The notes beneath the pieces are model-generated. The model saw only the letters and a program-made list of their open reading frames with translations, had not been told where the DNA came from and made no database searches. DNA of 64,000 bases, from sequence record PP763257.1; one strand, 5' to 3'. Of the stretch, positions 4,166-49,337 are shown piece after piece (within the stretch, counting starts at the first letter, position 1; each line of letters starts with the position of its first letter). A program made the position numbers and the translations under genes. Origin of the DNA: Acinetobacter phage Ab5.

Positions 4166-4522
4166 TCATATCTCTATCCTGTGGTTAGTTAGACTTGCAC
4201 CTTTTGAGATAACATCCTCTGAATTTTTACGATGATCTTCATATTGGTTGCCACCCTCAAGCACTTCCGTTCTTTCACGAGCTAGATATAGATCAACTTC
4301 CTCAAGCAACGCCTCATAGCGTCTTTTTGCCTCATCACCTAAAACAGAAGCTTCTTTCTGGATTTCCCAAGCTTTGTTATAATCATTTTTGCTATGAACA
4401 GGCTCATCTGGATCATCTACAAAGCAATTGCGGAAATCTTCAAATCGTTTGATAGACTCTCTGTGAACTTGAATCCAATGAACAAACATCATCCCAATCT
4501 TGGTTATCTTTTGATCATTCAT
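4166..4522 (-). CDS. hypothetical protein (last gene of leftward operon)
   Basis: ORF track. 8-nt overlap with the upstream gene. Confidence 0.5.
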   Translation of the reverse strand: MNDQKITKIGMMFVHWIQVHRESIKRFEDFRNCFVDDPDEPVHSKNDYNKAWEIQKEASVLGDEAKRRYEALLEEVDLYLARERTEVLEGGNQYEDHRKNSEDVISKGASLTNHRIEI

Positions 4523-4904
4523 TTGTATCCACCTTGAGCGCTTGCTCTAAATCCACAGTTAATATCTTGTGAATATCACTATTTGTTTCTCCAAGATAAA
4601 AATCACCAAAATCATCACCTGTGTAGTCTATTACCTCATTAATCTTTTCTTGCATAATTTCTATTTTCTTTTGCAGCTTCAGTATATTTATGCATTGTTG
4701 CATGTATAGGGTTTGTAGCTCCTCCACTTTCGCTTGCCGTGACTGTCGACCTTCTTGGAAGTAATATTCATAATCTGCTTTATTTTTCTCTATATCCCAT
4801 GTGACTAAATCTGCCTTTCTATTTTCACCAAGCGTAATCAATTCTTTAACCAAGATATCTTTGTGTTGTTGCAATGCTTCTTCAAATTCATCTATCTCAT
4901 TCAT
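4515..4904 (-). CDS. hypothetical protein. Shares a QAKVEELQ motif with 5099..5392.
   Basis: ORF track. Coupled overlaps. Confidence 0.5.
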   Translation of the reverse strand: MNEIDEFEEALQQHKDILVKELITLGENRKADLVTWDIEKNKADYEYYFQEGRQSRQAKVEELQTLYMQQCINILKLQKKIEIMQEKINEVIDYTGDDFGDFYLGETNSDIHKILTVDLEQALKVDTNE

Positions 4905-5118
4905 CTTTACTACCCTTCATCCACATTCTCTCCTCCAGTGAATCTTCCCAATTACCTTCGTATGATTTTATCCCAGTCGCACTAAAACTTGCAACCCAAG
5001 AATTACCACACGGTGTAGGTTTAGTAAACAATTTAACACTACCATCTTGACATGTTGCTATAGCGACAACCCGATCAGGAACATCAGACCAATCATATTT
5101 ACTCATTACATCCTCCAT
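4897..5118 (-). CDS. hypothetical protein
   Basis: ORF track. Coupled overlaps. Confidence 0.45.
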   Translation of the reverse strand: MEDVMSKYDWSDVPDRVVAIATCQDGSVKLFTKPTPCGNSWVASFSATGIKSYEGNWEDSLEERMWMKGSKDE

Positions 5119-5392
5119 TGAGCGTGTGCTCTATCTTCTCCCTAATAGATATAGAGTCACTCTCTTTAATCTGAAATGCGTCTAATCCATATCGTAAGAC
5201 TTCTTCTAATAACTTTTGTAACTCCTCTACTTTCGCTTGCTGCACTTTAAAAACTTCATATGCTCTACGAACAGTTCGATCTAAATACCTATTACCTTCT
5301 CTTCTAAATTGAGTTGTAATTATTTCATCATGTGTATTTTCATAACACACTTCGAATTCATCGAAATATTCCTTACTCACATTTACCTCCAA
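5099..5392 (-). CDS. hypothetical protein
   Basis: ORF track. Confidence 0.45.
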   Translation of the reverse strand: MEVNVSKEYFDEFEVCYENTHDEIITTQFRREGNRYLDRTVRRAYEVFKVQQAKVEELQKLLEEVLRYGLDAFQIKESDSISIREKIEHTLNGGCNE

Positions 5393-5744
5393 TAAATTCC
5401 TTCAACTCATCACACACCCAAGACTCAATCCAATATTGTTTTTCATGAGTAAAGTCTTTCCAATCGAAGTGTTCTTTTGTTAATAAAACACCAGCAACTT
5501 TTATATTAGTTTCACGATCAATAAAACCTTGTTCATAGTAATCATATAAAACATCACGTCTATTTTGTGTGTACATCTCATACTTACACTCAACAATCCG
5601 TTTATCATGTTTTTTAATAATCAACTCAACTATTTCATCTATCTTTTCAGAAATATAACGATATACTTTAAACATCTCTTGGTATTCGTAAAAGAATGAA
5701 GTTGGTGTTACTTTTATATCATCATCCCAAAAATAATTATTCAT
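5373..5744 (-). CDS. hypothetical protein
   Basis: ORF track. Confidence 0.45.
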   Translation of the reverse strand: MNNYFWDDDIKVTPTSFFYEYQEMFKVYRYISEKIDEIVELIIKKHDKRIVECKYEMYTQNRRDVLYDYYEQGFIDRETNIKVAGVLLTKEHFDWKDFTHEKQYWIESWVCDELKEFIGGKCE

Positions 5745-5746
5745 AG

Positions 5747-6016
5747 TTACTCCTTATTTATAACAGGTTCTTGATCTGTACATGTACTCTTTCCACACGC
5801 ATGACTTGTTTCAATTGAATTGATATTCAAATCTTTTGGACATACCCAATATCTATCTCCTTTAAATAAATATTTAGTACAACCAATTGAGTTCACTTCT
5901 AGAACATATGGTGTTGTTTTTCCTCTATCTCTTCCATTTGATGATATACCAATTAACACGGAGAATGGTATTAATATCATCATAACTCCTATCATTACCA
6001 AATGCCACAACCTCAT
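5747..6016 (-). CDS. hypothetical membrane/secreted Cys-containing protein
   Basis: N-terminal hydrophobic segment (LVMIGVMMILIPFSVLIGI) and several Cys. Confidence 0.45.
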   Translation of the reverse strand: MRLWHLVMIGVMMILIPFSVLIGISSNGRDRGKTTPYVLEVNSIGCTKYLFKGDRYWVCPKDLNINSIETSHACGKSTCTDQEPVINKE

Positions 6017-6025
6017 TTTACTCTC

Positions 6026-6235
6026 CTAAATTTCTCTCTTCCACTTATCATAAAACTCTAACAATTCTGTTGTTGTATCAAACCACCCAACAAACACTGT
6101 TCTTATCACACCTTTATCATCAATTAAGATGTGTCCAGCATGAAATACTACATTGTATTCCAACATATAATAATGTGTAAGTTCTAAAGGTTTATCATCT
6201 TCAATTCTATGTATATTATTAAATACATAACTCAT
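6026..6235 (-). CDS. hypothetical protein
   Basis: ORF track. ATGA-type coupling chain 6026 to 7015. Confidence 0.45.
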   Translation of the reverse strand: MSYVFNNIHRIEDDKPLELTHYYMLEYNVVFHAGHILIDDKGVIRTVFVGWFDTTTELLEFYDKWKREI

Positions 6236-6420
6236 AATTTACCTTCAACATACAATGGTACTTGTTGAAAATCACAACGGACCACCTTTGTCGTAGTCTC
6301 ATGAAATTTCTTTTGTTTCATACAAACTTCTCTTGTTGCATATGTTAATTGATAATTTACTGATTTCTGATATTGTGTATCATACACTGTTAATACCCAT
6401 ACCGTCAACCACGTAATCAC
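6232..6420 (-). CDS. hypothetical protein
   Basis: ATGA coupling. Confidence 0.45.
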   Translation of the reverse strand: MITWLTVWVLTVYDTQYQKSVNYQLTYATREVCMKQKKFHETTTKVVRCDFQQVPLYVEGKL

Positions 6421-6626
6421 AATTCAATTACTCCTAGTTCTACATAATAATCAAAATAAGCTCTAACCTCACATTCGTAGAAACCATTGTCGATAATTAA
6501 ATCTTCAACCATTTCTTTTGTTGGTGTTACACCCTTCTTAAACTTCCCACAATAAGACTTATGATAATATACAGATACCTGTTGTGTCTTTTGCACTGTC
6601 GTTAAATCTTCGAATTTAATTATCAC
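6417..6626 (-). CDS. hypothetical protein
   Basis: ATGA coupling. Confidence 0.45.
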   Translation of the reverse strand: MIIKFEDLTTVQKTQQVSVYYHKSYCGKFKKGVTPTKEMVEDLIIDNGFYECEVRAYFDYYVELGVIEL

Positions 6627-7015
6627 AACCCTTCAACCTCCCAACTACCGTCATAATCATATGCTAAATGCATTTTTGAATATTGATCCGTATCCCGAAC
6701 TCTTGACCTATACCAAAATACCTCTTCCATACTCATTTTGCCAATACAATTTCCAACAAGAATTATACCATACAAACATCTACCAACAAAATACCTACCG
6801 AGTTCTTCGCTGAATGTATGACATGCAACCTTAACACCAAGTTTCATAAACTGATCATGGCGTGTTCTCTCATAACCATGTAACTCCAAATATTCTTGAA
6901 AACTATTAATTTGTTGATTATTATTAAATAATAAAACAAGTTCTAAACACTTACCATCTCTTGAAACATTTGTAAATTCTTCAAATTCAGACAACAAGTC
7001 ACTTAATGATTTCAT
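6623..7015 (-). CDS. hypothetical protein
   Basis: ATGA coupling. Confidence 0.45.
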   Translation of the reverse strand: MKSLSDLLSEFEEFTNVSRDGKCLELVLLFNNNQQINSFQEYLELHGYERTRHDQFMKLGVKVACHTFSEELGRYFVGRCLYGIILVGNCIGKMSMEEVFWYRSRVRDTDQYSKMHLAYDYDGSWEVEGL

Positions 7016-7251
7016 TACCTCATCTCCAATTTACCATTGTCATAAACAAAATCTGTCTTAACATTATACTTAATTGAAGAAATAATTGGAAGAGATAATT
7101 CTAACAATTTTGTATTCTTCTCAGCCCACAAACTTCGTGTATGATAATCACCTTTAATTGATGCAATTTCATTGTTAATACAACGAATATTTTCAATCAA
7201 TTCTTCAAGCAATAAACCTAAAGCTTGATCCTTTGTTAACACTTCACTCAT
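7015..7251 (-). CDS. hypothetical protein
   Basis: ORF track. Confidence 0.45.
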   Translation of the reverse strand: MSEVLTKDQALGLLLEELIENIRCINNEIASIKGDYHTRSLWAEKNTKLLELSLPIISSIKYNVKTDFVYDNGKLEMR

Positions 7252-7568
7252 TCCATTTTTCCATAAATATATTGTAAAGACTTTATCATCTCACCAAGTT
7301 CTTCTTTTGTCAAGATACCAACAAGATAATTACTCTCTTCATCAAGAGGGTTTCTACTAGTGAAATTAAATACGATGTCATCTTTATACTCACCAATTAG
7401 ATCATGCTCAATTAGATAATGCGGTTTAAAATCATCGGTCTCGTCCACAACCAACCTAATACTACAGTCAATCTCTCCATACTCATCAATATTAACATAA
7501 GCAAAAGCACCTTTCTCTTGACCAAGACCCTTCTGATCATCAGTTACTATTTTCATCATCTTCCTCAT
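7248..7568 (-). CDS. hypothetical protein
   Basis: ATGA coupling. Confidence 0.45.
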   Translation of the reverse strand: MRKMMKIVTDDQKGLGQEKGAFAYVNIDEYGEIDCSIRLVVDETDDFKPHYLIEHDLIGEYKDDIVFNFTSRNPLDEESNYLVGILTKEELGEMIKSLQYIYGKME

Positions 7569-7923
7569 TAGTAATTAGGAATATAAAATTATCATCAAGT
7601 ATTTTCGAAAACTCAGGATAAAGCTCCTCAAATGTCCCTATTTTAAAATCCTTCACACTACTTGGATAATTATTAACCTCCATCTTACCAAACACACCAC
7701 CATAAGTTTCAAGCTCTACTATCTCATCGCACTTAATACACTTCTTATATTTCCCACAATGACTGTGACACCAAAAATGTGAACAATCTTTTTTCTTAAC
7801 TAAGCATTCGACAGCTTCAGGACTTAAACCTTCAATTTCTTCATCATTGATGACACAAATAACTTCACTTGGTTTATATGTTTTAATCATTAGAACCAAC
7901 CCTTGATATCTCTCATATTCCAA
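7540..7923 (-). CDS. hypothetical Cys-rich zinc-finger-like protein (CSHFWCHSHCGKYKKCIKC)
   Basis: Cys/His cluster in the translation. Confidence 0.45.
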   Translation of the reverse strand: MEYERYQGLVLMIKTYKPSEVICVINDEEIEGLSPEAVECLVKKKDCSHFWCHSHCGKYKKCIKCDEIVELETYGGVFGKMEVNNYPSSVKDFKIGTFEELYPEFSKILDDNFIFLITNEEDDENSN

Positions 7924-8266
7924 AATTCCACCAATTCTTGACTTGTCTCAATTTCGGAGGTTCTGGAGGTGGAGGAATCTCGTTATCTACTTGGATAAAA
8001 TCAATTACCCCAACATCAATACAAACAACTCCATTGTTGGTGTATGGACAACTAACTGTTGCAATAACTCCACGAATAGATAGAGACGGAGCGAATAACC
8101 CCGTACCTGAAATATTCACATTATCTATTGTGAATTTATAAGGTAGCACTAAACCGCTATCAATATTAGCTTTACAAACTTCTATAATCTCTTCACAAAT
8201 AGCTTTGTGGTCTTTCCTATTTATACCAACTTTTGATTGATATAAATCATATAACGATTCCGACAT
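7913..8266 (-). CDS. hypothetical protein
   Basis: ORF track. Confidence 0.45.
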   Translation of the reverse strand: MSESLYDLYQSKVGINRKDHKAICEEIIEVCKANIDSGLVLPYKFTIDNVNISGTGLFAPSLSIRGVIATVSCPYTNNGVVCIDVGVIDFIQVDNEIPPPPEPPKLRQVKNWWNFGI

Positions 8267-8883
8267 TATTTTCTCTCCTTATACTTGTAAACACCTTTAG
8301 ATTTTAAGAATGCACCTATATCATTATACACACTTTTCTTGTCTTGACAACCAAGATTAAATACAGGAATGTCATATTTCATTGCTAACTTAATAGCTGT
8401 TGCTGTACCACCTTGAATATTACCGTTTGGTGTCCAACAAATTACAGCATCAACAGGTGATTCTAAATCCAAACCTAGAATTTGATGACAATTACGACTG
8501 TGCATTCCTCTAGACCACTCGTCACAATTATTCCAATGTGAATCACCCATTACACTTCTAGCTAACTCTTCAGACTTCTCTATTAAATCCTTGTTTCTAA
8601 CTTTAGCTAAGTGTTTATTTGGTAGTGGACTACGATCAATGTTCTTTTGCTCAGCAACATATACTTCAAAATAACTCTCATCAATCCACCCCAAATCTAA
8701 AGCTTTAGAATAAGCTTTTTGAGATACTCCATCCATACCAAGTTCACACAAACCTGAAGTGAATTGTACTTTTAACTGAGCAAGACGAAGGCAAACATTG
8801 TAACAAATTTTAATGTCACCTTCGTACTTTTTGTTTTTCTCAAGTTCACGACTACCAATTAAAGCAATACGCAATCTACTCAT
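8266..8883 (-). CDS. DprA/Smf-like Rossmann-fold (SLOG superfamily) protein
   Basis: IALIGSR...TSGLCELGMDGVSQKAY...ICWTPNGNIQGGTATAIKLAMKYDIPVF resembles the DprA core (VAIVGSR / SGlAxGID / VVEA..SGsLiTA). Judged from memory of the family. Confidence 0.4.
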   Translation of the reverse strand: MSRLRIALIGSRELEKNKKYEGDIKICYNVCLRLAQLKVQFTSGLCELGMDGVSQKAYSKALDLGWIDESYFEVYVAEQKNIDRSPLPNKHLAKVRNKDLIEKSEELARSVMGDSHWNNCDEWSRGMHSRNCHQILGLDLESPVDAVICWTPNGNIQGGTATAIKLAMKYDIPVFNLGCQDKKSVYNDIGAFLKSKGVYKYKERK

Positions 8884-8889
8884 ATAACA

Positions 8890-9168
8890 TCAATCTCCTT
8901 CAAAATAAACAGTACAATCTCTCATAGGTGCTAATCTATTGTATAATCGAAATACTTGATAACATAACTCTTTATCATAATCCCTACTTACAACACGTAA
9001 AGGAAAAATTTTACCAATGTTAAAATGACCAGTTGACTTTTCTAGCTCAAAATCTGTTAGATTGCATTCCGACAAAAGATCATTTAGGTTTTCAAATACT
9101 TTATCTCCGATAGTTTGATCTTTTATCAGTAAATAAAAATCTCTTTTTCTGTCAAGAAGATCAATCAT
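8890..9168 (-). CDS. hypothetical protein
   Basis: ORF track. Confidence 0.45.
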   Translation of the reverse strand: MIDLLDRKRDFYLLIKDQTIGDKVFENLNDLLSECNLTDFELEKSTGHFNIGKIFPLRVVSRDYDKELCYQVFRLYNRLAPMRDCTVYFEGD

Positions 9169-9491
9169 ACATCATACCAAAGAATAGGTTTACATTTAAT
9201 ATCAGGATTCTTTGTTTCATGCAAGTACACTTCGTAATATGTGAAAGAACCTTTCATGTATGGATATGCTTCTTCAGCGCACAACTTTCGAGTTCTATGA
9301 ACTTCATCTGAAGTTAAATCCATTACTTCAAGAGCATCCAAGAACTCCTCATCTGTCTCATCAACAATTTCCATTGGCGTCCCATAATATTTCTTCCAAT
9401 AATCCAAAACATCTTGTTTAGACTTTGCAATATAAATTGCATCGTCGTTCACATTGATAAGAAGGAAATCATTTACCATAAATTGTTTCAT
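9165..9491 (-). CDS. hypothetical protein
   Basis: ATGA coupling. Confidence 0.45.
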   Translation of the reverse strand: MKQFMVNDFLLINVNDDAIYIAKSKQDVLDYWKKYYGTPMEIVDETDEEFLDALEVMDLTSDEVHRTRKLCAEEAYPYMKGSFTYYEVYLHETKNPDIKCKPILWYDV

Positions 9492-9493
9492 TA

Positions 9494-9961
9494 TTACTCT
9501 CCTTTAATAAATTCTTCAAATGTACGACTATCAACTAATGTATCATCATTAACATAAAACTTACAAGTTCTAAACACTGATGGTCGATTTTCTTGATCTA
9601 GGATTACTAATTCACCATTCAACCAACTAGCTGCATGGACAAATTGTCGGTATGGTAGAATAAAATCACTTCGTACAAACTCACAACCAAGAAGTTTATT
9701 TGTAAACTCTTCACGCTCAATGTCACGATGCAAACAGTGATTTACTTTTACATAAATATATCGAGTGTCATAATGATGAAGATCGTCATAATCTAATTCA
9801 TCCTCAATTGAGAATTTATCCCCTAGTTTATATTCATGTAACATATCACCTTTTTTTAAATCAAAGCAGATATACAGTGTTTTATCATCAATATCTCGAT
9901 CTATAATATCTTTACCTATAGCTGATTCAGCCTCATGAATACTATCAAATACACGTTTCAT
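9494..9961 (-). CDS. hypothetical protein
   Basis: ORF track. Confidence 0.45.
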   Translation of the reverse strand: MKRVFDSIHEAESAIGKDIIDRDIDDKTLYICFDLKKGDMLHEYKLGDKFSIEDELDYDDLHHYDTRYIYVKVNHCLHRDIEREEFTNKLLGCEFVRSDFILPYRQFVHAASWLNGELVILDQENRPSVFRTCKFYVNDDTLVDSRTFEEFIKGE

Positions 9962-9985
9962 AATTTCTCCTTAATTTAGTTAATT

Positions 9986-10195
9986 TTACATTAACACTTC
10001 GTTTAGAATTTCTTTTAACTTTTGAGCTTGATCAATATGTAAATCTAACGATATGCCAAAATATTGATCTGTAATCCTAATACTATCATCATGTCTGCGA
10101 CAATTAACCAGAAGACTATTCCAAGTTGCCGAACCACAATTATATTGTTCAACCACCTCATCAATAACTTCGTAATGATTAAACTTAACACTCAT
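9986..10195 (-). CDS. hypothetical protein. Start refined to the ATG at 10195, behind a GGAGAAGAAA RBS, rather than the track start at 10285.
   Basis: Internal Met with a strong RBS removes the 100-nt overlap. Confidence 0.4.
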   Translation of the reverse strand: MSVKFNHYEVIDEVVEQYNCGSATWNSLLVNCRRHDDSIRITDQYFGISLDLHIDQAQKLKEILNEVLM

Positions 10196-10397
10196 TTTCT
10201 TCTCCAAAAATATCCAGCGTTTTGTCACATCTCTTACTTCGTGACATTGTTTTAGATTTCTTACAATATGTTTTAAAATCTTCAAAACCTGTCATATGTG
10301 CAATCACATCGTTCCAAGTAAATCCATTAACCTTGTATTTATCTTCAATATAATCACATAAATCTCCATCAATTACAATCATTCTTTTTCGTGACAT
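10185..10397 (-). CDS. hypothetical protein. Start refined to the ATG at 10397 (GGAG RBS).
   Basis: Internal Met with RBS. Track start is 10418. Confidence 0.4.
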   Translation of the reverse strand: MSRKRMIVIDGDLCDYIEDKYKVNGFTWNDVIAHMTGFEDFKTYCKKSKTMSRSKRCDKTLDIFGEENEC

Positions 10398-10638
10398 AAT
10401 AATTACTCCAAAAATCATTTACTGCATTATCAAAAATACCGTCTTCGTCTTCAAACATCACTGTGTTAAACCATCCAAGACCAACTAAGTGATATTCACT
10501 TGACCATGAACCAACATTAACACCATCACACTCATATTCCTCACCAACACTAAGGATAGAATTTGCGTGTTTATTCTCACCATCATACCCACCTTTACCA
10601 GTGAACTTTACTTTACCTAAAATCATATCAATCTCCAA
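10369..10638 (-). CDS. hypothetical protein
   Basis: ORF track. Confidence 0.45.
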   Translation of the reverse strand: MEIDMILGKVKFTGKGGYDGENKHANSILSVGEEYECDGVNVGSWSSEYHLVGLGWFNTVMFEDEDGIFDNAVNDFWSNYYVTKKNDCN

Positions 10639-10789
10639 TCAATTCAATAAATTTATTTAAACAAACACTTTCAGGCAAACTATCACAAACCATTTTACCA
10701 TCAACAATTAAATCCCATTCATTACGAAGTTCTTTGTATGGTCGAAGTTCATAAACAACACCTTTCACAACAACGATAAATCCTTTCAA
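10628..10789 (-). CDS. hypothetical small protein. Likely TTG start at 10789 after TGGAGA. Track start is 10840.
   Basis: No internal ATG. The TTG overlaps the upstream stop (TTGA). Confidence 0.3.
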   Translation of the reverse strand: MKGFIVVVKGVVYELRPYKELRNEWDLIVDGKMVCDSLPESVCLNKFIELIGD

Positions 10790-10968
10790 GATAGAGTCTC
10801 CAAATAAATTAAATAAGTAAAAAGTAAAGCTAATATACAATCAATAATCTTACGAATCCAGAAAGTCACTTTTTCTGTGTAACTTGTATAGGTAATTACA
10901 GATAAGTATAAAAATGCAATTGTAAAAGCTAACAATATAAACATAACAACCTCAAAGTGTAGATGCAC
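10786..10968 (-). CDS. hypothetical small membrane protein
   Basis: Two hydrophobic segments. Confidence 0.4.
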   Translation of the reverse strand: MHLHFEVVMFILLAFTIAFLYLSVITYTSYTEKVTFWIRKIIDCILALLFTYLIYLETLS

Positions 10969-11293
10969 TAACTAAGTATTTACCTTTCTCACCGAACATG
11001 TCATCAACTACAGCTTGTGCAAAACGATAATCTTTAGCTTTAATAAATACACGATTACCAAAAGCATTTTTAATATGATATTTATACTTTGGAAACTTAT
11101 TGTTTCTAGGTGCATGACAACTAATAAAAACAACTTTCTTTTTACCTTCATACTCAAATGTATATTGTGACACTCCACCATTCATAAGAATACTTTCATC
11201 AAAAACAACAACACTCTCCTTCTCTTTCTTCTTAACCACCTTCAAGTCTTGTTTCTTAGATGCTTTCAATAAGGCTTGTAACATTGCAGTCAT
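10952..11293 (-). CDS. hypothetical protein
   Basis: ORF track. Confidence 0.45.
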   Translation of the reverse strand: MTAMLQALLKASKKQDLKVVKKKEKESVVVFDESILMNGGVSQYTFEYEGKKKVVFISCHAPRNNKFPKYKYHIKNAFGNRVFIKAKDYRFAQAVVDDMFGEKGKYLVSASTL

Positions 11294-11397
11294 TTAAATC
11301 TCCAGATAATACTATGTGTTTTACATTAACCATTTCTACAGACAATAATAAAGCGACACTCAACTAATGTCAAGTGTCGCTTATGATAAATTTGTAA

Positions 11398-11943
11398 TTA
11401 TTCTGTATTGTATTTTTCTTCTAATTGCTTCCATGCGTCTTGCAAAGTAGACACTGACTGTCTGAGCTTATCCCCATCCTCTGCCATGTCGAGATATCGT
11501 TCTGTGCAGCTTCCAAACGACTCTTGTAACCATTGTAAGTCTCTCCTTGATACACTGACGGAGCTTTCGGAATTACTACTTTGATTGGCACTACTCCCAC
11601 TTCCGACTTTATTGATTTGTTCACGCAACCGCTTAACATCAGCGTTGATACTATTCCTAGAAACAATAATTTTATCGATTTCACTTTGATGTTTCTCCTG
11701 TAAAATTGTATACTCTTTGTTTAATTCATTAACCTTTCTTATTGAATTATTTTGTTCTTCAATCAGTTTGGAAGTCATATCATTTTTAAGAGAAACATAA
11801 GCTACATCTTTATCAACTAGCTTTTTCTCATATTTATTTTTAAGACTTTCATTCTGCATTAACAAACCAAGTAATCCAATAAACAAAATAACGATTAAGA
11901 ATTCTTTCCAAAATCTAATCATATAAGAAATAGCTAGTGTCAT
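11398..11943 (-). CDS. i-spanin (Rz-like): N-terminal TM helix plus periplasmic coiled-coil
   Basis: TM segment FLIVILFIGLLGLLM followed by coiled-coil-like Gln/Glu/Lys-rich sequence. Contains an embedded +1-frame lipoprotein ORF. Confidence 0.55.
   Translation of the reverse strand: MTLAISYMIRFWKEFLIVILFIGLLGLLMQNESLKNKYEKKLVDKDVAYVSLKNDMTSKLIEEQNNSIRKVNELNKEYTILQEKHQSEIDKIIVSRNSINADVKRLREQINKVGSGSSANQSSNSESSVSVSRRDLQWLQESFGSCTERYLDMAEDGDKLRQSVSTLQDAWKQLEEKYNTE
11421..11684 (-). CDS. o-spanin (Rz1-like) outer-membrane lipoprotein embedded in the i-spanin gene
   Basis: Signal peptide MKSIKLLFLGIVSTLMLSGC with lipobox L-S-G-C. Entirely embedded in an alternate frame of 11398..11943, as in lambda Rz/Rz1. 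Confidence 0.6.
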   Translation of the reverse strand: MKSIKLLFLGIVSTLMLSGCVNKSIKSEVGVVPIKVVIPKAPSVYQGETYNGYKSRLEAAQNDISTWQRMGISSDSQCLLCKTHGSN

Positions 11944-11944
11944 A

Positions 11945-12652
11945 TTACTTCTTCCGTTTCTTCAGCTCATTTTGAATCATCTTCACATCCTCTTTATATA
12001 AAGATAATTCAGCTTCAAGCTCTTCATCTGTATATTGCGACATGTCAAGAGGTTTATCTAAGCTTTGTTGGATAGCTTCTGCTCGTAATTGCTCTCGCTT
12101 CTGTAGCCTTTCACGAATTTCGAAATCCTCAAAATAGAAATCTTCACCACGTAAACAATTTTCAATCTCCTCTTCTGTCAAGAACCCTAAATACGCTTCA
12201 CGAATAAATCTCTCATTTCCAGCTTGATAGTGACTGTGCTGTTTCTTGGTTTCACTAGCCTTACCTCCAACCCAAAATGACTGTTCATGAATCATTAGTG
12301 TCGTGTTGTTTCCAACCACAAAGTTATGACAAGCAAGTAGTAGCACTGAAGCACAACTGCAACCTTGCCCAAGTAAGAAACCAGTGACCTCAGCACGAGT
12401 CATAGACATTGCATTAAGAATCGCATTAAGTGCATCAACTCGTCCTCCAAAGTTGTTAATCATGAAATTAATACGATCACCCTCTTCAGCCTGTAGTAGC
12501 AATGTGACAACCTCGTCATAATAAGATGGGTGCTCAAACTCTTGAGAGAAGTGAATTGTATATTCATTTGAAACTAGTTGCTTAATATATATGGAAGGAT
12601 AGTTTGATGGGTTTTCCATACCTAAGTAGTTAGTTGATGTGTTTTTAATCAT
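11945..12652 (-). CDS. ClpP-like (S14 family) serine peptidase with an N-terminal extension
   Basis: GQGCSCASV matches the ClpP active-site Ser motif GQAASMGA. LMIHEQ matches the His motif MIHQP. Crotonase-like spacing. Confidence 0.6.
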   Translation of the reverse strand: MIKNTSTNYLGMENPSNYPSIYIKQLVSNEYTIHFSQEFEHPSYYDEVVTLLLQAEEGDRINFMINNFGGRVDALNAILNAMSMTRAEVTGFLLGQGCSCASVLLLACHNFVVGNNTTLMIHEQSFWVGGKASETKKQHSHYQAGNERFIREAYLGFLTEEEIENCLRGEDFYFEDFEIRERLQKREQLRAEAIQQSLDKPLDMSQYTDEELEAELSLYKEDVKMIQNELKKRKK

Positions 12653-14025
12653 GTTAGCTCCTTTTCTATAGCAAGAATTGTTTCAAAAATTTTATCTTTG
12701 ACATTTAAATTAAAGCATTCAGTTTCACCTTTGAAACTTAACTTGGGCGAGTACCTATCTTTTCTAAAAGCTCGCTTTAATTTGTTTTCAGCATCGTATA
12801 CATTATCACAATAGCCTTTTAAAACGTGTAATACTTCAATATCGTAAGGTACTCTACTCTTAAACCTTTCGGAAACATCCTCATGAACAGTGATTCCTAC
12901 TTTTAGAAAGTTCTCATGATCGTTGTAACACCTAACCAGATACAAATTAGAGTTGTAATCGTACTTTTTACAAACTTCTCTGTACTCCGATCTTGAGTAA
13001 CCTCTTGTGCTATAGCAAACAGGGCATCCTGAACCTCTTAAGTGACTGTTTGGAACTTGTGAAAAAGTCTCAAAACAAGAGTTACATTTTATGTTAACTT
13101 TTACACTACTCAACTTATACAGCACATCAGTGTAATCGTAAGCATCTTCACCATGTACTTTTCTAGCTTTTAATACAAAGTCTTCAGTTGACAACCTATT
13201 TCTTTCAGAAATATTTCGTCTGTAGCAAGTCGTACAACCGTGACCAGATAAATGATTAGCTGGTTTTTGTTTAAAAACCAGTTCACAAGATTTGCAAAAT
13301 ATATCGACTGGTGTTACGGAGTTTTTATAAACAACATCCTTATAATCGAACAGGTCTCCGTGTACTTTAGTAGCTTTTTTAATGAAAGTACTGTTTAGGT
13401 AAGATTGATCATCTGATGTAAAAACATTCCTACACTCAGGACATCCTAAACCTTTCAGATGTTTAAAAGGTTGTGATTTAAAACTTCCGTGTACCTTGCA
13501 TGTTATAATAACCTTCTCAGTCGATCTATGATACTAAGTATCGTCATAGGAATACTTATTTCCGTGTATGTCTTTTGCTTTTTCAACAAACCATTCAGTG
13601 GTTTTAGTTTTAGAAGAAGCAATTTTCTTACCTCTACAAAGAGGGCAACCCTTACCGAGTAAATGACAAGAAGGTAGTTGCTCAAAAACACCATGTTCTC
13701 TGCAACGTATTTTTACCTTAATTAGTTTACCAGAGTACACTGTTTCCGAGTAGTCGTAAATACCTTTGTGAACTTTTTCAGAATCTTCAATAAATGTTGT
13801 ATATTGAGACCTTCTTGTTTCACCTCTCTGCACCTTAGAACACTCTGGACAGTTCCTACCTTTTAAGTGTACATACGCGGACTGATAAAAGCTCCCATGC
13901 AGTTTACAAATTATCTCTAACTTATCTTTAGATGTCTTGTATACACTTTTAGAATAATCATAGCGATCTCCGTGTCTTTCCTTAGCTTCTCTGATAAAAA
14001 TATCAGTTGTAACCTTTCTCCCCAC
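12649..14025 (-). pseudogene. Homing-endonuclease-like gene with five tandem zinc-ribbon repeats and a C-terminal T5orf172/GIY-YIG-like domain, interrupted by one in-frame TAG at 13534..13536. The ORF track splits it into 13534..14025 and 12649..13194.
   Basis: My minus-strand translation of 13195..13533 continues in frame with no stop. It carries repeat 3 of the motif HGxxYDYSxxxY...CxxHGxFxQ...HLxGxGCPxC and repeat 4 as a degenerate variant (HGDLFDYK...CKSCELVFKQ...HLSGHGCTTC). C-terminus KVGIT...EVLHVL...ECF. The downstream part has no ATG or GTG before the TTG at 13194. Confidence 0.55.
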
Positions 14026-14099
14026 CTGAACAGCAACTCCTATTTAAAACTCTCTTAACACTTCTTCAAAATATTCACTAAATGTCATAAATACATCTC

Positions 14100-14285
14100 C
14101 TATAATTTTCGCGGTGGTAATTTTATTTCTAAACCAATATCAGGACGCATGTGTCGAATCTTGAAGCCCATCTTCTGAACCTTTCGTAAAGCATCATCCT
14201 CTGTTTTTGCTGAAACACGAAGTTCACCTTCGATGTCATCAGTATACACTGTGAAGATTGTTCGCTTATTTGGTGTATGTCCCAT
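14100..14285 (-). CDS. hypothetical small protein
   Basis: ORF track. Confidence 0.4.
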   Translation of the reverse strand: MGHTPNKRTIFTVYTDDIEGELRVSAKTEDDALRKVQKMGFKIRHMRPDIGLEIKLPPRKL

Positions 14286-14563
14286 TACCCCTCCAAATCT
14301 TCTTCTAAAATTACATAATAAGTTTCACCTTCAAGTCGATCATACCTGTCAAAAAGATCGTAAATATCTTGTTGGTATTCATAAACAACATCTTCATCTT
14401 GATGTTCAAAAGGTGTAGATAAAATATATCCATTTAATCTTTTCTCAAGACTATTAAGTTCTTTGAAAAATTCCAATGACTCTTGATAAGGAATCAAATA
14501 TGTGTGACCATCATCGTCTTCATATGTTGCATAAATTTTATTTGGGTTGATATTCATTTTCAA
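14285..14563 (-). CDS. hypothetical acidic protein
   Basis: ORF track. D/E-rich. Confidence 0.45.
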   Translation of the reverse strand: MKMNINPNKIYATYEDDDGHTYLIPYQESLEFFKELNSLEKRLNGYILSTPFEHQDEDVVYEYQQDIYDLFDRYDRLEGETYYVILEEDLEG

Positions 14564-14768
14564 AACTCTCCTTTAATTTTGGATGATTAATGAATTGATT
14601 AAACACCTCAACTGGAACTTCAAACCAATTATAACCATCTTCATAAACCACAGTTCCGTATTCTGTATAATAAAGTTTAGGATGAGGAGGAGGTTTATTT
14701 TCCTCCATCTCAATTATCTTGTCTCGAAGAATTTTAAGCTCTTTGATCAAATCTTCTTGACTAACCAT
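14538..14768 (-). CDS. hypothetical protein. Start possibly the ATG at 14768, overlapping the PhoH stop. Track start is 14819.
   Basis: Internal ATG, start-stop overlap ATGGTTAG. Confidence 0.35.
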   Translation of the reverse strand: MVSQEDLIKELKILRDKIIEMEENKPPPHPKLYYTEYGTVVYEDGYNWFEVPVEVFNQFINHPKLKESFENEYQPK

Positions 14769-15516
14769 TAGAATAAATCTCAGTAACCCGCTTACTAATC
14801 GCACCACGCTGATTCTCATTGGTGGTTAGTTCAACATATTTAAATAATGGTTCAATCGAATATCTGCCCATTTCATCATCAATTGTTACACGCTCAATAA
14901 AGTCTGTAAAACCATCTTTTCGCTTCTTAACTGAGTATTGTTGAGATTTATCACCAAGAAGAATTAACTTACATGAATCATCAACACGTTCCATTAATAA
15001 TTTCAATGTTAAAGGAGAATATGTTTGACACTCATCAAGAATAACAATCGAATTACTCAATGTAGCACCAAGAAGGAAGTTTGGAATCTTGAACTCAATA
15101 TTCTTATTCTTTTCTTCACTTTCCAGTTTTCCTTTAGACATGAAGTCTAAGAATATACCACGCATTGAATCAAAATGCGGTTCAAGTTTAGAACTTTCGT
15201 TTCCGGTCAAAAATCCGATTTGGTCATCTCCTGCTTCCGTAGGGTTTTTAACAAACACAATTTTTCGATATCCACTACCTAACAAAGATAACGCCTTCCA
15301 AACAACACAAGTGCTTTTACCGCATCCACTTGGTGCTTGAACACCAACCCAATCATATTGATCGATAGCGTCAACAATATCTTTCTGTCTTCCTTTTGGA
15401 ACAAACCACGACAAATCATATTTTTCAGATTTAATGAATTGGTGTTCTGCTTCTTGAGTAACACCTCTCACTTCTCGATTGTAATGCTTATCTTTACGCA
15501 ATTCTCTACGACCCAA
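14761..15516 (-). CDS. phoH: PhoH-like ATPase
   Basis: Walker A VQAPSGCGKST, Walker B-like IVILDECQ, LILLGDKSQ. PhoH-family architecture. Confidence 0.8.
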   Translation of the reverse strand: MGRRELRKDKHYNREVRGVTQEAEHQFIKSEKYDLSWFVPKGRQKDIVDAIDQYDWVGVQAPSGCGKSTCVVWKALSLLGSGYRKIVFVKNPTEAGDDQIGFLTGNESSKLEPHFDSMRGIFLDFMSKGKLESEEKNKNIEFKIPNFLLGATLSNSIVILDECQTYSPLTLKLLMERVDDSCKLILLGDKSQQYSVKKRKDGFTDFIERVTIDDEMGRYSIEPLFKYVELTTNENQRGAISKRVTEIYSNG

Positions 15517-15540
15517 ATCATCTCTCCTTAATGTTAGGAA

Positions 15541-15723
15541 TTATTTTTTAAGAACTTCACGAGGAATCACAAAATTCGTTCTGAAACCCTGTCCAAATTC
15601 TACACTATTAACAAATTTAATAAACAAACTCTGTTCTTTTTTAGAAAGTTTCCTTAAAGTCTCAATCTTCGATTCATTTGTACTTTTAAGGTTATTTGCA
15701 TTCGCTAAATTAATTTCTGACAT
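15541..15723 (-). CDS. hypothetical small protein
   Basis: ORF track. RBS GGAG upstream. Confidence 0.4.
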   Translation of the reverse strand: MSEINLANANNLKSTNESKIETLRKLSKKEQSLFIKFVNSVEFGQGFRTNFVIPREVLKK

Positions 15724-15876
15724 AATTTTCTCCTAAACAATATAAAACATCCATGTTAATAATTCCTATTTAATTTGGACTATAGGTCCCACGCTTCTTT
15801 TGTTAAAGTTGTGGGTTTACCAAGTCCATATCCATCAATGATAAATCCTAATCCGTAACCTTCCATAACAAGCTCC

Positions 15877-16188
15877 TTACTTCTTAGTTGTAGTTTTTGC
15901 TGTTTGTGTTTTAACAGAAGTTTTAACTGGTGTCTTAGCAGGATTAGCCGACTCAGTGGTTTCAGCAGCTTCTTCTTTAGCAACCTCTTTAGAAGCCTCC
16001 TTCACTACTTCTTGTTTAGCTTCAGATTGTTTAGCTGAACGCTGGAAGTTAGCTGTGAATTGAACACCACCAATAGTTGCACTACCGTTTGCTACAAAAG
16101 ACCAACCATTTTGAATCAACTCTTGAACTTCAAGTAAGAATTGTACATAATTAGTGTGACGAATACGTTTTGTTTCTACATTTGACAT
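15877..16188 (-). CDS. putative DNA-binding protein with a Lys/Ala/Thr-rich histone-H1-like C-terminal tail. Start refined to the ATG at 16188 with an AAAGGAAAC RBS.
   Basis: MSNVETKR... ending AKTPVKTSVKTQTAKTTTKK. The track ORF extends to 16260 with no RBS. Confidence 0.4.
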   Translation of the reverse strand: MSNVETKRIRHTNYVQFLLEVQELIQNGWSFVANGSATIGGVQFTANFQRSAKQSEAKQEVVKEASKEVAKEEAAETTESANPAKTPVKTSVKTQTAKTTTKK

Positions 16189-16219
16189 TTTTGTTTCCTT
16201 TATATATAAATGAGTAATA

Positions 16220-16248
16220 TTTATAGCATTGTTATATTTACATGTCAA
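16220..16248 (-). promoter_or_regulatory. sigma70-like promoter TTGACA-17-TATAAA driving the leftward operon
   Basis: On the minus strand: TTGACA (comp. of 16243..16248), 17-nt spacer, TATAAA (comp. of 16220..16225). About 25 nt upstream of the 16188 start. Confidence 0.45.
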
Positions 16249-16306
16249 GTAAAATAACAATATTTAACAATGATAGCAAGTATATTGTTATTTTTTGTTA
16301 AAACTA

Positions 16307-16335
16307 TTGACATTCACTCTTGACAAGGTTATAGT
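16307..16335 (+). promoter_or_regulatory. sigma70-like promoter TTGACA-17-TATAGT driving the rightward late/structural transcript
   Basis: Consensus -35 and near-consensus -10 with 17-nt spacer. Divergent from the 16220..16248 promoter. Confidence 0.5.
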
Positions 16336-16348
16336 GCAAGGACAGGGT

Positions 16349-16420
16349 TGGGTTGGATATGTTATTATGAGTGAAACGAAATAATAATACATTAATGTCA
16401 ATCTTTAGATTGCTACAATA
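16349..16420 (+). repeat. Conserved 72-nt leader element, copy A (GGGTTGGATATGTTATTATGAGTGAAACGAAATAATAATACATTAATGTCAATCTTTAGATTGCTACA). A partial second copy ATGAGTGAAACGAA lies at 16427..16440.
   Basis: Perfect reverse-complement match to 49114..49185. Contains a TTATTAT/ATAATAA hairpin and the palindrome CAATCTttAGATTG. Confidence 0.7.
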
Positions 16421-16551
16421 TATTGAATGAGTGAAACGAATGAAATATATTGGGATATAAGAATAGTATTATAAATATAACATTTACAATATGCTATATG
16501 TGTTCTATGCGTAGCATAATATATTATATAATAATATTGTAAAATAATACT

Positions 16552-17235
16552 TTGGAGAATTACAAGAATATGTCAACATTAGAAGATTATCTATCTTTAA
16601 GAATACAAGACTGTTACTACGATAGTAATACATACTTTAACAGAGATAAGAATTTATATCATGTTTATTTGTTTTATTATGATAATGTATTAGTTTATGT
16701 TCATTATGGACAGAAGGGAACAGAAGAAATACATTACACCTCAGAATCACCATGTCCAAAGTTTAGAAAGATTTATAAAGAGAATAAGACACACCTGATC
16801 TCACACCATCACCTTACCAAGTTTAGTGTTTTACATGATTGTTTGTTTTATGTTGATTTCTTGATTAATAAATTCAAACCTAAATACAATAAGAAGATTG
16901 AAGTGTTAGATGAAACTGTGTACAATAAACAGATCAGATTTACACATACTCCAGATGAAATACCTCATGACAATGAACTAACTTTGTTGTATTTGTTTTG
17001 TTTACTTGGTTATCCACTTCAATTGATATCTGATTACACTGGTGTTGATCTTAAAGAATTAAGTAAGATTAAAAACAGAGAAGGAAGATATTCTTATCCT
17101 GTGTTTTGTTTTGAATATGTAAACAAACAAGGATTTGCTGTTGTGGATAAAGCTTTGCTTAATCATTATTGTAATGTTGTGTTTAAGACAGATATTGATC
17201 GTATTGAAGAGCTTTATGGTGTTGCTTATTTTTAG
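16552..17235 (+). CDS. hypothetical protein
   Basis: ORF track. RBS TTTGGAGAA. TAG stop. Confidence 0.5.
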   Translation: MENYKNMSTLEDYLSLRIQDCYYDSNTYFNRDKNLYHVYLFYYDNVLVYVHYGQKGTEEIHYTSESPCPKFRKIYKENKTHLISHHHLTKFSVLHDCLFYVDFLINKFKPKYNKKIEVLDETVYNKQIRFTHTPDEIPHDNELTLLYLFCLLGYPLQLISDYTGVDLKELSKIKNREGRYSYPVFCFEYVNKQGFAVVDKALLNHYCNVVFKTDIDRIEELYGVAYF

Positions 17236-17355
17236 CACATATACCAATTAAAAATCATAGTCAATAATAATTTTGTAAAGTTATGTAAAAAAGCTTGACT
17301 AATCTTTAAAAGGTTGTTATTCTTATCAACATAAAGAAAACAATAAATAATAATT

Positions 17356-17383
17356 TCTGAATGGACTCCTTAATTCAGAAAGG
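17356..17383 (+). other. hairpin TTCTGAAT-(10)-ATTCAGAA
   Basis: Perfect 8-bp inverted repeat in non-coding region 17236..17667. Confidence 0.4.
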
Positions 17384-17399
17384 ATTCACTTTCCTCCAA

Positions 17400-17457
17400 C
17401 ATCACTCTCTTATTCTACAAACAATAATAATAAAGACTCTCCTGTAAGAGAGTGATG
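17400..17457 (+). other. long hairpin CATCACTCTCTTA-(32 nt)-TAAGAGAGTGATG followed by a U-rich tract
   Basis: Perfect 13-bp inverted repeat. Possible terminator or structured RNA. Confidence 0.45.
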
Positions 17458-17470
17458 TATTTTCTAATAT

Positions 17471-17555
17471 GCGGAAATCAGTAAGATGTAGTGAAGTAAG
17501 TGACTAGTTAAACTTATGAATCGAGAGTTGGTTAGAATCCAACAATTCCGCTCCA
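17471..17555 (+). other. tRNA-like fragment with a near-canonical T-arm GTTGG-TTAGAAT-CCAAC and an acceptor-like pairing GCGGAAA/ATTCCGC-T-CCA. D-arm and anticodon arm are non-canonical.
   Basis: T-arm GGTTAGAATCC differs by one base from the consensus GGTTCGAATCC. 6 of 7 acceptor pairs. The only anticodon-like stem (TAAGT/ACTTA) has a 10-nt loop GACTAGTTAA. Confidence 0.2.
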
Positions 17556-17667
17556 GATTTTAAATTTCACCCATGATCAGATTACGGTGGGTATGAAACG
17601 TGTAGTGGTGTCGCTACCATGTAAGCGAATGTGGCACATTATTTATTAGCAACAAATAGGTAAAATA

Positions 17668-46331: not shown

Positions 46332-46336
46332 AATAA

Positions 46337-46371
46337 AAGACAACTATCATTTTTGATAGTTGTCTTTTTTA
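46337..46371 (+). terminator. rho-independent terminator AAGACAACTATCA-tttt-TGATAGTTGTCTT + TTTTT
   Basis: Perfect 13-bp stem, then a T-run, at the end of the structural module. Confidence 0.7.
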
Positions 46372-46565
46372 CGTCTATTGTTTTATCAAAATGATAAAAT
46401 CGAATTTATCAAATAGATTTACTATAGTTCATTTTGAATTACTGTAGTTCACATTGATAATTTGTTTAATAAGACAAATAGGTTTTAAATATGTTCTAAA
46501 TAAGAGATTTGACAAAAGAAAAAGAAGTGACTATCATTCGATTTGTTTTGTTGTAGGAGGTTTTT
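46371..46565. promoter_or_regulatory. intergenic control region with direct repeats TTATCAAA x2 and TAGTTCAyNTTGA x2
   Basis: Repeats read directly upstream of the DNA-binding protein gene. Confidence 0.3.
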
Positions 46566-47444
46566 GTGTTTAAAGGTTTAATTTCAGAAGTAGCAAAAGA
46601 TGCTGGTCGTAGTGCAGCATTAATCATTAATCAATTATTTCAATGGTATAAAGGAAGTAATTCAAAAAAGATTTACCGTACAAATCAAGAGTTACATGAT
46701 GATTTGTGTGGAATCATGTCTACAGCAACAATTCAACGTTGTAAAAAAAGATTGATTGAGAAAGGTTATATTGAAGTTTCTTTTGATAAAGGTTTGAATC
46801 GTGTAACTCACTATTCACTTACAAAGAAAGCTTTAGAATTATTGGATAGCTCTAAAACATCTTCAGAAGCCCGTAGTGAGAAAAAAGAAGGAAAAGGTAG
46901 TGGTGTACCACACACTCCTAAAACATCACCACAACGTGCTAAAACAGGTATTAAAAAGGGTGCTATTGTACACTCATACGGAAATGTCAAATCAATGAAG
47001 GAATGTTTTGAAGAAGGAAGTGATAACAAGAATGCAGATCGTTCTTTAACTCTATCTGAACGACTAGCTCTGATGAAAGGAGAAAAGATTGATTTAAACA
47101 AGCATAATGACGCTTTAGAGCAATGTTTAGATGAAAGTGGTACAAACGTACCAGACAACATTAAAAATGTCTCTATGGAGCTTATAGACAGCTTAAATGA
47201 GGTGTGTAGTGTTAATGAAGAAGATGAACATTTAAATGCTCTATCACAACATGATTACGATGAATGTGATCTTGCTATGTTGAATTCTTTGAATAAGCAA
47301 CAAGAACATTTGACAGATGATAAGTTGACTGTTGGTCAATTATTAGGTAATATTGGTTCTGTATATAAATCAGGTGTGTCAGAAGCTAGAGAAAGAATCT
47401 ATCAGATGTCACAATTACAAAATGGTTACTTGGAGGATTATTGA
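46566..47444 (+). CDS. putative DNA-binding protein (winged-helix-like N-terminus), GTG start after AGGAGG
   Basis: N-terminal region ...IMSTATIQRCKKRLIEKGYIEV resembles wHTH replication/regulator proteins. First gene of the replication module. Confidence 0.35.
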   Translation: MFKGLISEVAKDAGRSAALIINQLFQWYKGSNSKKIYRTNQELHDDLCGIMSTATIQRCKKRLIEKGYIEVSFDKGLNRVTHYSLTKKALELLDSSKTSSEARSEKKEGKGSGVPHTPKTSPQRAKTGIKKGAIVHSYGNVKSMKECFEEGSDNKNADRSLTLSERLALMKGEKIDLNKHNDALEQCLDESGTNVPDNIKNVSMELIDSLNEVCSVNEEDEHLNALSQHDYDECDLAMLNSLNKQQEHLTDDKLTVGQLLGNIGSVYKSGVSEARERIYQMSQLQNGYLEDY

Positions 47445-49066: not shown

Positions 49067-49113
49067 TGTTTAATATAATATTATTATATCCAATAACATT
49101 CATTACATTCATG

Positions 49114-49185: not shown

Positions 49186-49199
49186 TGACCCCTTGAAAC

Positions 49200-49227: not shown

Positions 49228-49337
49228 GCTTTTTTACAAATAATAACAAATATATTTAATTATTGTTTGTTAATTGTAAAATATGTAGACTATAAATTAT
49301 ACTTGGTTTATAGTCTTATTAAGTTTAAGGAGGTTTT

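Follow-up and report, generated by a model that had tools for sequence, protein, structure and literature searches.

Two inverted copies of a promoter-leader cassette

The window, i.e., the whole stretch of 64,000 nucleotides of Acinetobacter phage Ab5 DNA analyzed here (PP763257.1), contains one outstanding inverted repeat, detected by a repeat scan and by reading of both loci. Its two arms, hereafter copy A and copy B, are exact and 100% complementary over 68 nt, which cannot be chance. The preliminary description had presented them as an exact pair of 72 bp; the repeat stands but is shorter, positions 16349, 16418 and 16419 being unpaired with the partner copy.

16350–16417, plus strand: 68-nt block of copy A, reverse complement of 49117–49184
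49117–49184, minus strand: 68-nt block of copy B, reverse complement of 16350–16417; contains hairpins 1 and 2

This block is the core of a longer A/B homology of about 210 bp, with indels, whose limits in local alignment are about −75 and about +135, counted from the predicted start. It takes in upstream A/T-rich sequence, a second TTGACA located in the promoter spacer and, from a divergent partner promoter, the −35 box. The duplicated unit is an entire back-to-back sigma70-type promoter region together with about 130 transcribed bases. The 14-bp palindrome noticed earlier in the element, CAATCTTTAGATTG, is present in both copies and nowhere else in the window. The motif ATGAGTGAAACGAA is found exactly three times in the window, at 16367, at 16427 and at 49167–49154 (minus strand), so that its announced third occurrence at 16427–16440 holds.

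16282–16335, plus strand: promoter P_A; A/T-rich upstream, −35 box TTGACA at 16307–16312, second TTGACA in the spacer at 16320–16325, −10 box TATAGT at 16330–16335
49200–49250, minus strand: promoter P_B; A/T-rich upstream, −35 box TTGACT at 49227–49222, second TTGACA at 49214–49209, −10 box TATTAT at 49205–49200
16220–16248, minus strand: divergent partner promoter of region A; TTGACA at 16248–16243, 17-nt spacer, TATAAA at 16225–16220
49274–49303, plus strand: candidate divergent partner promoter of region B; TTGTAA-18-TATACT, putative, weak consensus match

P_A (TTGACA-17-TATAGT) matches the consensus at 11 of 12 positions and P_B (TTGACT-16-TATTAT, 49227–49200) at 10 of 12, and the sigma70-like promoters proposed at 16307–16335 (plus) and 49200–49227 (minus) are thus both found in place. 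The distance of 14 nt initially given between promoter and element is right for copy A, counted from the −10 box, and is 15 nt for copy B. The layout TTGACW-N7-TTGACA-N4-TATAGT is kept in the relatives BS46, Phab24, L018 and L379, the second TTGACA being missing in L380. P_A diverges from the leftward promoter of a minus-strand block (4166–16260) that includes a PhoH-like gene; this partner promoter points to the leftward early gene block, and the stretch is conserved in all aligned relatives. The candidate partner of region B is directed at the replication genes that follow, with its −35 box inside the part of the homology that contains the −35 box of the region A partner. The start sites used below, about 16342 (plus) and about 49193 (minus), are predictions, 16342 being derived from the position of the −10 box.

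The P_B region was also considered as a plus-strand intrinsic terminator (CUUGAC...GUCAAG followed by U6; −11.9 kcal/mol), a candidate that was dropped for want of conservation in BS46. Between the candidate rightward promoter of region B and the Shine-Dalgarno sequence of gene 49338, an inverted repeat AGACTATAAA...TTTATAGTCT (49287–49316) is kept in most phages of the window group, not in B9.

Genes around copy A

16342–16475, plus strand: leader RNA of copy A, from the predicted start to the end of the A/B homology
16570–17235, plus strand: gene of a 221-aa ORFan protein, first gene after copy A, no family match

The copy A leader is the 5′ UTR (228 nt) of the ORFan gene, which accompanies the A copy in all three lineages, those of the BS46 group and L018 included. 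Profile searches with the 221-aa protein against Pfam, PHROGs and PDB were empty, only two homologous clusters were found among 5.8 billion proteins, and its AlphaFold model is unusable (pLDDT 42). In this low-confidence model, residues ~136–168 (16975–17075) are drawn as three short consecutive helices, and LGYPLQLISDYTGVDLKELSKIKN of the protein might be taken as helix-turn-helix-like, a reading that no profile search backs.

The ORFan gene is followed by a 430-nt non-coding gap with a promoter-like site (17295–17323) and a terminator-like hairpin (17436–17453), beyond which lie cell-wall hydrolase, terminase and structural genes. Copy A had been described as the leader of the rightward late transcript. 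This is not supported in so simple a form, since it is the 5′ UTR of the ORFan gene, and a promoter, the terminator and the gap intervene. As the terminator at 17436–17453 stands between the ORFan and the late genes, calling copy A a late leader would be justified only by read-through.

The same gap (17236–17667; also L001:2540–2965 and L018:10665–11770) contains two non-coding blocks that are 100% identical across three lineages, the neighbouring proteins being just 46–47% identical. Block 1 (~17378–17474), located behind the promoter-like site and ending in the hairpin at 17436–17453, could be an sRNA of ~125 nt; its exposed CCUCC resembles an anti-Shine-Dalgarno sequence. Block 2 (~17563–17645) is GC-richer and looks structured; neither block has a match in Rfam. 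A ~70-nt stretch private to the window (17470–17545) contains a tRNA T-arm-like GGTTAGAATCCAAC, and ARAGORN finds no tRNA there. At the same place, L018 carries an insert of ~640 nt (about 11160–11740) flanked by repeated AATAGGTAAAATATT, and the gap of Ab3-TPeters measures ~1.6 kb.

Genes around copy B

46335–46368, both strands: bidirectional terminator-like site, 15-bp perfect hairpin between an A run and a T run
46509–47444, plus strand: replication-initiator unit, with promoter TTGACA-17-TATCAT at 46509–46537 and gene at 46566–47444
49070–49193, minus strand: leader RNA of copy B, predicted start ~49193; no coding sequence behind on this strand

The structural operon ends at 46331 and is followed by the hairpin at 46335–46368, terminator-like on both strands. 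Next comes the initiator gene, whose product matches O-like and DnaD-like replication-initiator families and whose BS46 orthologue, gp49, is annotated as a replication initiation protein; it is followed by small ORFs, a 195-aa protein with a C-terminal hydrophobic segment, and region B. To the right of region B are small ORFs, dCMP deaminase, primase/helicase and DNA polymerase genes. P_B is thus located inside the replication module and aimed against the initiator unit, in an arrangement that is identical in BS46. The two copies had been supposed to bracket the structural module; in fact the structural operon terminates at 46335–46368, and copy B lies 2.8 kb further on, among the replication genes.

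No minus-strand ORF of at least 60 aa is found behind copy B from 49066 to 48329. The earlier statement that copy B would be transcribed antisense to gene 48479–49066, with no sizable ORF behind it, is therefore correct, no such ORF occurring before 48328. The first strong terminator ahead of the leftward P_B transcript is the one at 46335–46368, ~2.8 kb away; between P_B and 46368, no minus-strand terminator of comparable strength is found, the one weak candidate having a 6-bp stem (47153–47138).

This location, with copy B in the replication module and 1.7–2.7 kb from the initiator gene, raises the possibility that the transcripts prime or activate DNA replication, either at a promoter-plus-R-loop origin, as in T4 ori(uvsY)/ori(34) or the ColE1 type, or by transcriptional activation of an origin near the initiator gene. 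The RNA of the window group does have a G-rich 5′ end, followed by very A/T-rich DNA. However, BS46-type leaders are U/C-rich and not G-rich, an R-loop primer needs no conserved hairpins such as those described below, and copy A is distant from the replication genes. We therefore consider a role in priming very improbable.

Two other observations were made around the initiator and region B. Direct repeats of TTACTRTAGTTCA (46419–46431 and 46441–46453), upstream of the 46509 promoter and the initiator gene, look like iterons or an operator. ORF 49338–49640, directly to the right of region B, encodes 100 aa in the window; its counterpart in Ab3-TPeters, like those of the metagenomic relatives P0003 and P0004, has 83 aa, which suggests a frameshift or stop-codon difference at its 3′ end.

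Distribution of the cassette and gene conversion between its copies

The window groups with the A. baumannii myophages TaPaz, vB_AbaM_B9 (B9), phiAB441, MD-2021a and Ab3-TPeters, both copies being present in each of these six records; around copy B, it is 99% identical to Ab3-TPeters. The more distant BS46 and Phab24, at ~70% DNA identity to this group, also have an A copy and, in the equivalent intergenic gap and on the opposite strand, a B copy. Both copies are therefore kept at the same two loci and in the same relative orientation in 8 phage genomes, which answers positively the question of conservation; since these genomes were sequenced independently, an assembly artefact, envisaged in the preliminary description, is excluded. 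Single copies were found in three metagenomic contigs, L018 (A copy), L379 and L380 (variants of the B copy). L018, reached by a protein-guided look-up, represents a third lineage with an A copy, its neighbouring protein being 46% identical. The number of copies is exactly two in the window, as it is in the complete Ab3-TPeters genome, and matches occur at two places in each of the BS46 and Phab24 records.

The cassette appears to be confined to this small group. A sensitive blastn search of 50,697 phage records gave matches only in Acinetobacter phages of one small clade. Two strict patterns searched in IMG/VR, JGI metagenomes and GTDB genomes returned one chance match inside a large ORF, or none, and a looser 17-base pattern, searched in the same three collections, showed the promoter context in none of at least 360 loci among the matches listed. 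Relatives of the flanking proteins were not found in IMG/VR; in the set of 5.8 billion proteins they form 2+2 clusters, which were the source of L018, L379 and L380.

Over 67 compared positions, no difference separates copies A and B of the window or those of Ab3-TPeters; the number of differences is 2 for MD-2021a, 3 for TaPaz, 3 for B9 and 4 for phiAB441. The exactness of the repeat, previously taken as a functional signal over 72 nt, was thus over-read, as the copies of the relatives differ at 2–4 positions. In the window and in Ab3-TPeters, the B copy has an A-type 5′ end (GGTTGGAT, not GGGTTGAT or GGGTGAAT). Furthermore, Ab3-TPeters has a private A-to-T change in both its copies, which is absent from both copies of the 99%-identical window. 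Together, the private change and the A-type 5′ end of copy B point to recent gene conversion between the inverted copies. BS46 is likewise concerted, its A and B copies having a common U-rich 5′ segment that is unrelated to the G-rich one of the window group. Judging from these alignments, the perfect 68-nt identity is an accident of lineage, and the functional signals are cross-phage conservation and covariation.

Recombination or inversion between the copies had been suggested as an alternative role. Gene conversion supports the former; inversion is not supported, as orientation is constant in the 8 genomes, among which no inversion isomer was seen, and as the Ab3-TPeters annotation contains no recombinase or invertase. 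The cassette differs in this respect from the invertible segments of Gin/Hin type. A related view is that a useful bidirectional promoter region was passively duplicated in inverted orientation and homogenized by gene conversion, its transcribed part being functionless and the repeats being at most substrates for recombination or inversion. The extension of the homology over the partner promoter and the evident gene conversion agree with this view; the constant orientation and the lack of an annotated invertase speak against it, as do properties of the transcribed part described below, and it is very improbable.

A conserved and covarying RNA structure

The transcribed part of the cassette, 125–135 nt long, folds into three hairpins according to RNAalifold, which was run on an ordinary MAFFT alignment of ten copies of the window group.

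16356–16393 (copy B 49178–49141), plus/minus strand: hairpin 1; A/U stem with one G-U pair, apical U-GA-GU-GAA-AC-GA-A
16399–16412 (copy B 49135–49122), plus/minus strand: hairpin 2; CAAUC-UUUA-GAUUG
16416–16452, plus strand: hairpin 3, A type; 9-bp stem, then GA/GA, AU/AU, GA/GA, GU/AC and GAA loop
49092–49118, minus strand: hairpin 3, B type; stem CAUAACAU / AUGUUAUU, then GA/GA, AU/AU and GUA loop

Hairpin 1 contains ATGAGTGAAACGAA at 16367–16380, and in its B9 variants the outer helix is preserved by changes on both strands. Hairpin 2 reads UAAUC...GAUUA in BS46 A and has a 7-bp stem (CAAUCAU...AUGAUUG) in BS46 and Phab24 B, versus 5 bp in some other copies. A-type hairpin 3 contains a second ATGAGTGAAACGAA (16427–16440), and three of its base pairs differ between A and B types on both sides, with pairing intact in the RNAalifold structure. 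At the position of hairpin 3, BS46 A, BS46 B and the B type of the window group have distinct, perfect stems of 8–10 bp, and in L018 A the closing pair is changed in a compensatory way from U-A to C-G.

Covariation was reassessed in a second, hand-made alignment of 12 distinct copies, representing 5 sequence types and anchored on invariant flanks (C...G-GG) rather than on pairing. Standard pairs occupy 99% of 196 cells in this alignment, and 8 pairs are changed on both sides, 7 of them in hairpin 3; these figures come from few independent lineages. None of 500 shuffles matched the observed pairing and covariation values, and sliding the 3′ partner by 1–3 columns lowers pairing to 26–43%. The covariation check called for at the outset is thus positive with both alignments. 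In addition, hairpin 1 in the window group and hairpin 3 in the BS46 group contain G-U pairs, which would be C-A mismatches on the opposite strand. They fit the promoter strand only, indicating that the folded strand is the one transcribed by each promoter. Maintenance of hairpin 3 pairing through seven compensatory changes, together with these strand-specific G-U pairs, indicates that selection acts on the RNA. The element is thus probably a functional structured RNA. Two properties qualify this picture: folding energies of single copies are unexceptional (z about −1), and the 5′ third of the RNA, hairpin 1 included, diverges strongly between lineages, more than one would expect of an RNA binding to a conserved target in the host.

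The same data bear on two of the alternatives. The first would have a phage or host protein switch both promoters together by binding DNA, at the double TTGACA and at the palindromes ACATTAATGT and CAATCTTTAGATTG. It would account for the two adjacent palindromes and the repeated TTGACA being found at these two promoters only, and a similar imperfect palindrome, AATCTTTAAAAGGTT, is present in the spacer of the promoter at 17295. However, the spacing of the hairpin 2 half-sites is widened from 4 nt to 8 nt in the B copies of BS46 and Phab24, which fits a hairpin and not a dimeric DNA operator. Moreover, hairpin 3 stems are wholly different in sequence with pairing kept, the G-U pairs are strand-specific, L380 lacks the second TTGACA, and the substitutions in ACATTAATGT fall in one half only. 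A DNA operator is therefore improbable. The second alternative, passive duplication, does not explain why hairpin 3 is distinct in A and B and yet paired through compensatory changes in two lineages that are ~70% identical. It is against these two readings that covariation weighs most strongly.

No match at gathering score was obtained with Rfam across the window, and permissive scans of both loci gave only chance-level hits (E ≥ 0.25); no tRNA or tmRNA was found in the window. The cassette RNA, absent from RNA databases, is probably a new regulatory RNA. Three other interpretations of its sequence were rejected. A leader peptide (MSETK-stop, MSETNEIYWDIRIVL-stop) would have no Shine-Dalgarno sequence, its reading frames are not shared by A and B, and AUG is absent from BS46 B. 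Pairing of the G-rich 5′ end with CAAUCUUU gives the fold of lowest energy for single copies of the window, but the U-rich leaders of BS46 type have nothing equivalent, and the helix is not picked by RNAalifold. Pairing of the loop sequence GAGUGA with UCACUC of the sRNA candidate in the neighbouring gap involves just 6 bp and is at chance level.

Apical motif and differences between A and B types

ATGAGTGAAACGAA occupies three different stems: in the window group it is carried by hairpins 1 and 3, and in BS46 A by hairpin 3. The motif becomes AUGAGUAAAACGAA in hairpin 3 of L018 A and AUGAGCUUUAGCGAA in hairpin 1 of L379 and L380, in which the variant form GAGCUUUAGCGAA is found. Its constant part, U-GA-G...C-GA-A, corresponds to two potential tandem G-A pairs around a 2-bp helix, closed by a variable loop, and presumably resembles a protein-recognition hairpin. 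Hairpin 3 carries this apical motif in A copies only, across three lineages, and is shorter in B copies, in both lineages. A and B are thus not interchangeable duplicates.

This difference is relevant to the hypothesis of a trans-acting small RNA encoded twice, free-standing at B and processed out of the 5′ UTR at A, which would base-pair with host or phage mRNAs or sequester Hfq, an RNase or a defence protein. Copy B indeed has no downstream gene, the structure and the single-stranded linker ACAUUAAUGUC are conserved, hairpin 3 is followed by A-rich AAN repeats, and two copies would double the dose. On the other hand, neither copy is followed by an intrinsic terminator or another defined 3′ end, no target complementary to the loop motif was found in the window with up to 2 mismatches, and the consistent difference in hairpin 3 between A and B, in both lineages, points to context-specific roles in cis. 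A trans-acting RNA is therefore unlikely.

Comparison with known phage leader RNAs

In phage HK022, put RNAs suppress terminators independently of any factor, via the zinc-binding domain of the RNA polymerase beta′ subunit. They are two similar multi-hairpin RNAs that follow early promoters and make the polymerase terminator-resistant, putL being located directly behind PL with a −10-like pause element near +23 to +28 (PMC9378689). Like putL and putR, the Ab5 cassette has two copies per genome, in opposite orientations, each downstream of a strong sigma70 promoter, and has a conserved multi-hairpin structure and a sequence similar between copies. Unlike them, it has three hairpins in 125–135 nt instead of two in ~70 nt, without sequence similarity to put; its promoters converge, 32.9 kb apart, whereas put promoters diverge from a single control region; there are no genes for copy B to express, and the 5′ third varies between lineages. 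A −10-like hexamer, TGTTATTAT, is present at about +19 to +27. Of 19 copies, 18 have such a hexamer somewhere between about +19 and +38, versus 23% of background windows, the copies being A/T-rich and not independent, so that its possible equivalence to the put pause element is only a hint.

The likeness to lambda nutL and nutR resides in a hairpin with a conserved apical motif in the leader of an early operon's first gene, in a second copy in another unit, and in a terminator after the first gene. However, the cassette has no sequence similarity to nut, its loop is not a GNRA-like pentaloop, and a single-stranded boxA (CGCUCUUA-like) beside a boxB hairpin is not conserved in the cassette; the nearest boxA-like string, UCUUUA, lies inside hairpin 2 and is missing in BS46 and Phab24 B. 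No arginine-rich small protein of N type is encoded after copy A, the product being of 221 aa, not Arg-rich and without family match.

Lambda oop is a 77-nt RNA with its own terminator. P_B resembles pO/oop in being non-coding and convergent with the replication-initiator transcription unit, but the first strong terminator of copy B is 2.8 kb away, and the cassette leader, unlike oop, serves a second time, in the 5′ UTR of an unrelated gene. The lambda pO promoter is convergent with pR, and its activity lowers pR transcription and tunes replication initiation (PMC3985674).

The PeSL of T4-like phages are repeated units of a near-consensus sigma70 promoter and a stem-loop that recombine with each other (PMC4122927). 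The cassette is similarly a recombining, repeated composite of a sigma70 promoter and stem-loops, but it has two copies at fixed loci, whereas PeSL are many terminator/promoter composites in hyperplastic regions, and its promoter is followed by ~130 nt that are transcribed and whose structure covaries.

Membership in the put, nut or oop families fails on sequence, boxA, N-type protein and short terminated RNA. The closest working models, by analogy, would be HK022 putL/putR and lambda nutL/nutR for the leader, and lambda pO for copy B. Promoter-proximal, structured leaders that occur twice in one phage genome are of a known kind, and it is to this kind that the cassette RNA, found in one small clade, is assigned.

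Possible role of the leader RNA

A regulator acting at the RNA level, as a shared leader or of antisense type, was among the first suggestions made for the element, and it agrees with the covariation of the hairpins and with a copy B that is non-coding and antisense to 48479–49066. The reading that we favour, on the analogies above, is that of a shared factor-binding 5′ leader on two early transcripts, copy B being antisense to the initiator operon; its probability can be put at roughly 45%. That copy B is an antisense or interference transcript is, taken separately, a tentative proposal with slightly less than even odds. RNA start sites, 3′ ends and timing are here deduced from the sequence.

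According to this favoured reading, the shared leader would act in cis as the recognition site for one common factor, which could be host RNA polymerase, proteins of Nus type or one made by the phage, perhaps the 221-aa product, and the apical U-GA-G..C-GA-A could be the site recognized. What becomes of the two transcripts would be decided by this factor, in the fashion of nut and put leaders. At A, the polymerase would pass the terminator at 17436–17453 toward the morphogenesis genes. At B, an untranslated antisense transcript would run ~2.8 kb, up to the terminator at 46368–46335, and might damp the replication-initiator unit through convergent transcription or antisense pairing, as pO acts on pR in lambda. 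That the leader is an antitermination or processivity device, an idea drawn from the comparison with put and nut, is possible but rather doubtful. A more complete version would make the cassette the RNA part of a new processive-antitermination switch in Acinetobacter phages without RNA polymerase or sigma factor genes of their own, turning the morphogenesis genes on via A and the initiator operon off via B: long antisense transcription from B would shut the initiator operon while read-through at A would activate morphogenesis. We regard this version as distinctly unlikely.

Phages of this group are under study for therapy against A. baumannii. In the literature on TaPaz, B9, BS46 and Phab24, no transcript mapping was found, nor any mention of promoters or RNAs in that on phages of this group. 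The two most consensus-like of the promoters that flank the late and replication regions carry a conserved, covarying and unannotated RNA, and the cassette thus offers a concrete and testable handle on the regulation of gene expression in these phages. Should the leader turn out to work by antitermination or as an antisense device, the few phage processivity elements known so far would be joined by a new RNA family, and a compact promoter-plus-leader part would become available for engineering Acinetobacter phages.

The annotation of Ab3-TPeters, the one fully annotated relative inspected, contains no RNA polymerase, sigma factor or known regulator. In the same annotation, an identical set of small genes is found at both ends (L015 421–3779; L017 42231–45589, equal to 92231–95589), which implies direct terminal repeats of ~3.9 kb. 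From the gene coordinates, the window begins ~109 nt inside the equivalent of the Ab3-TPeters left end. Near this left genome end, at 103–145, the window contains a promoter-like site with two TTGAC boxes 14 nt apart (TTGACAccttattaTTGACT-16-TATATT), which has no similarity to the leader cassette.
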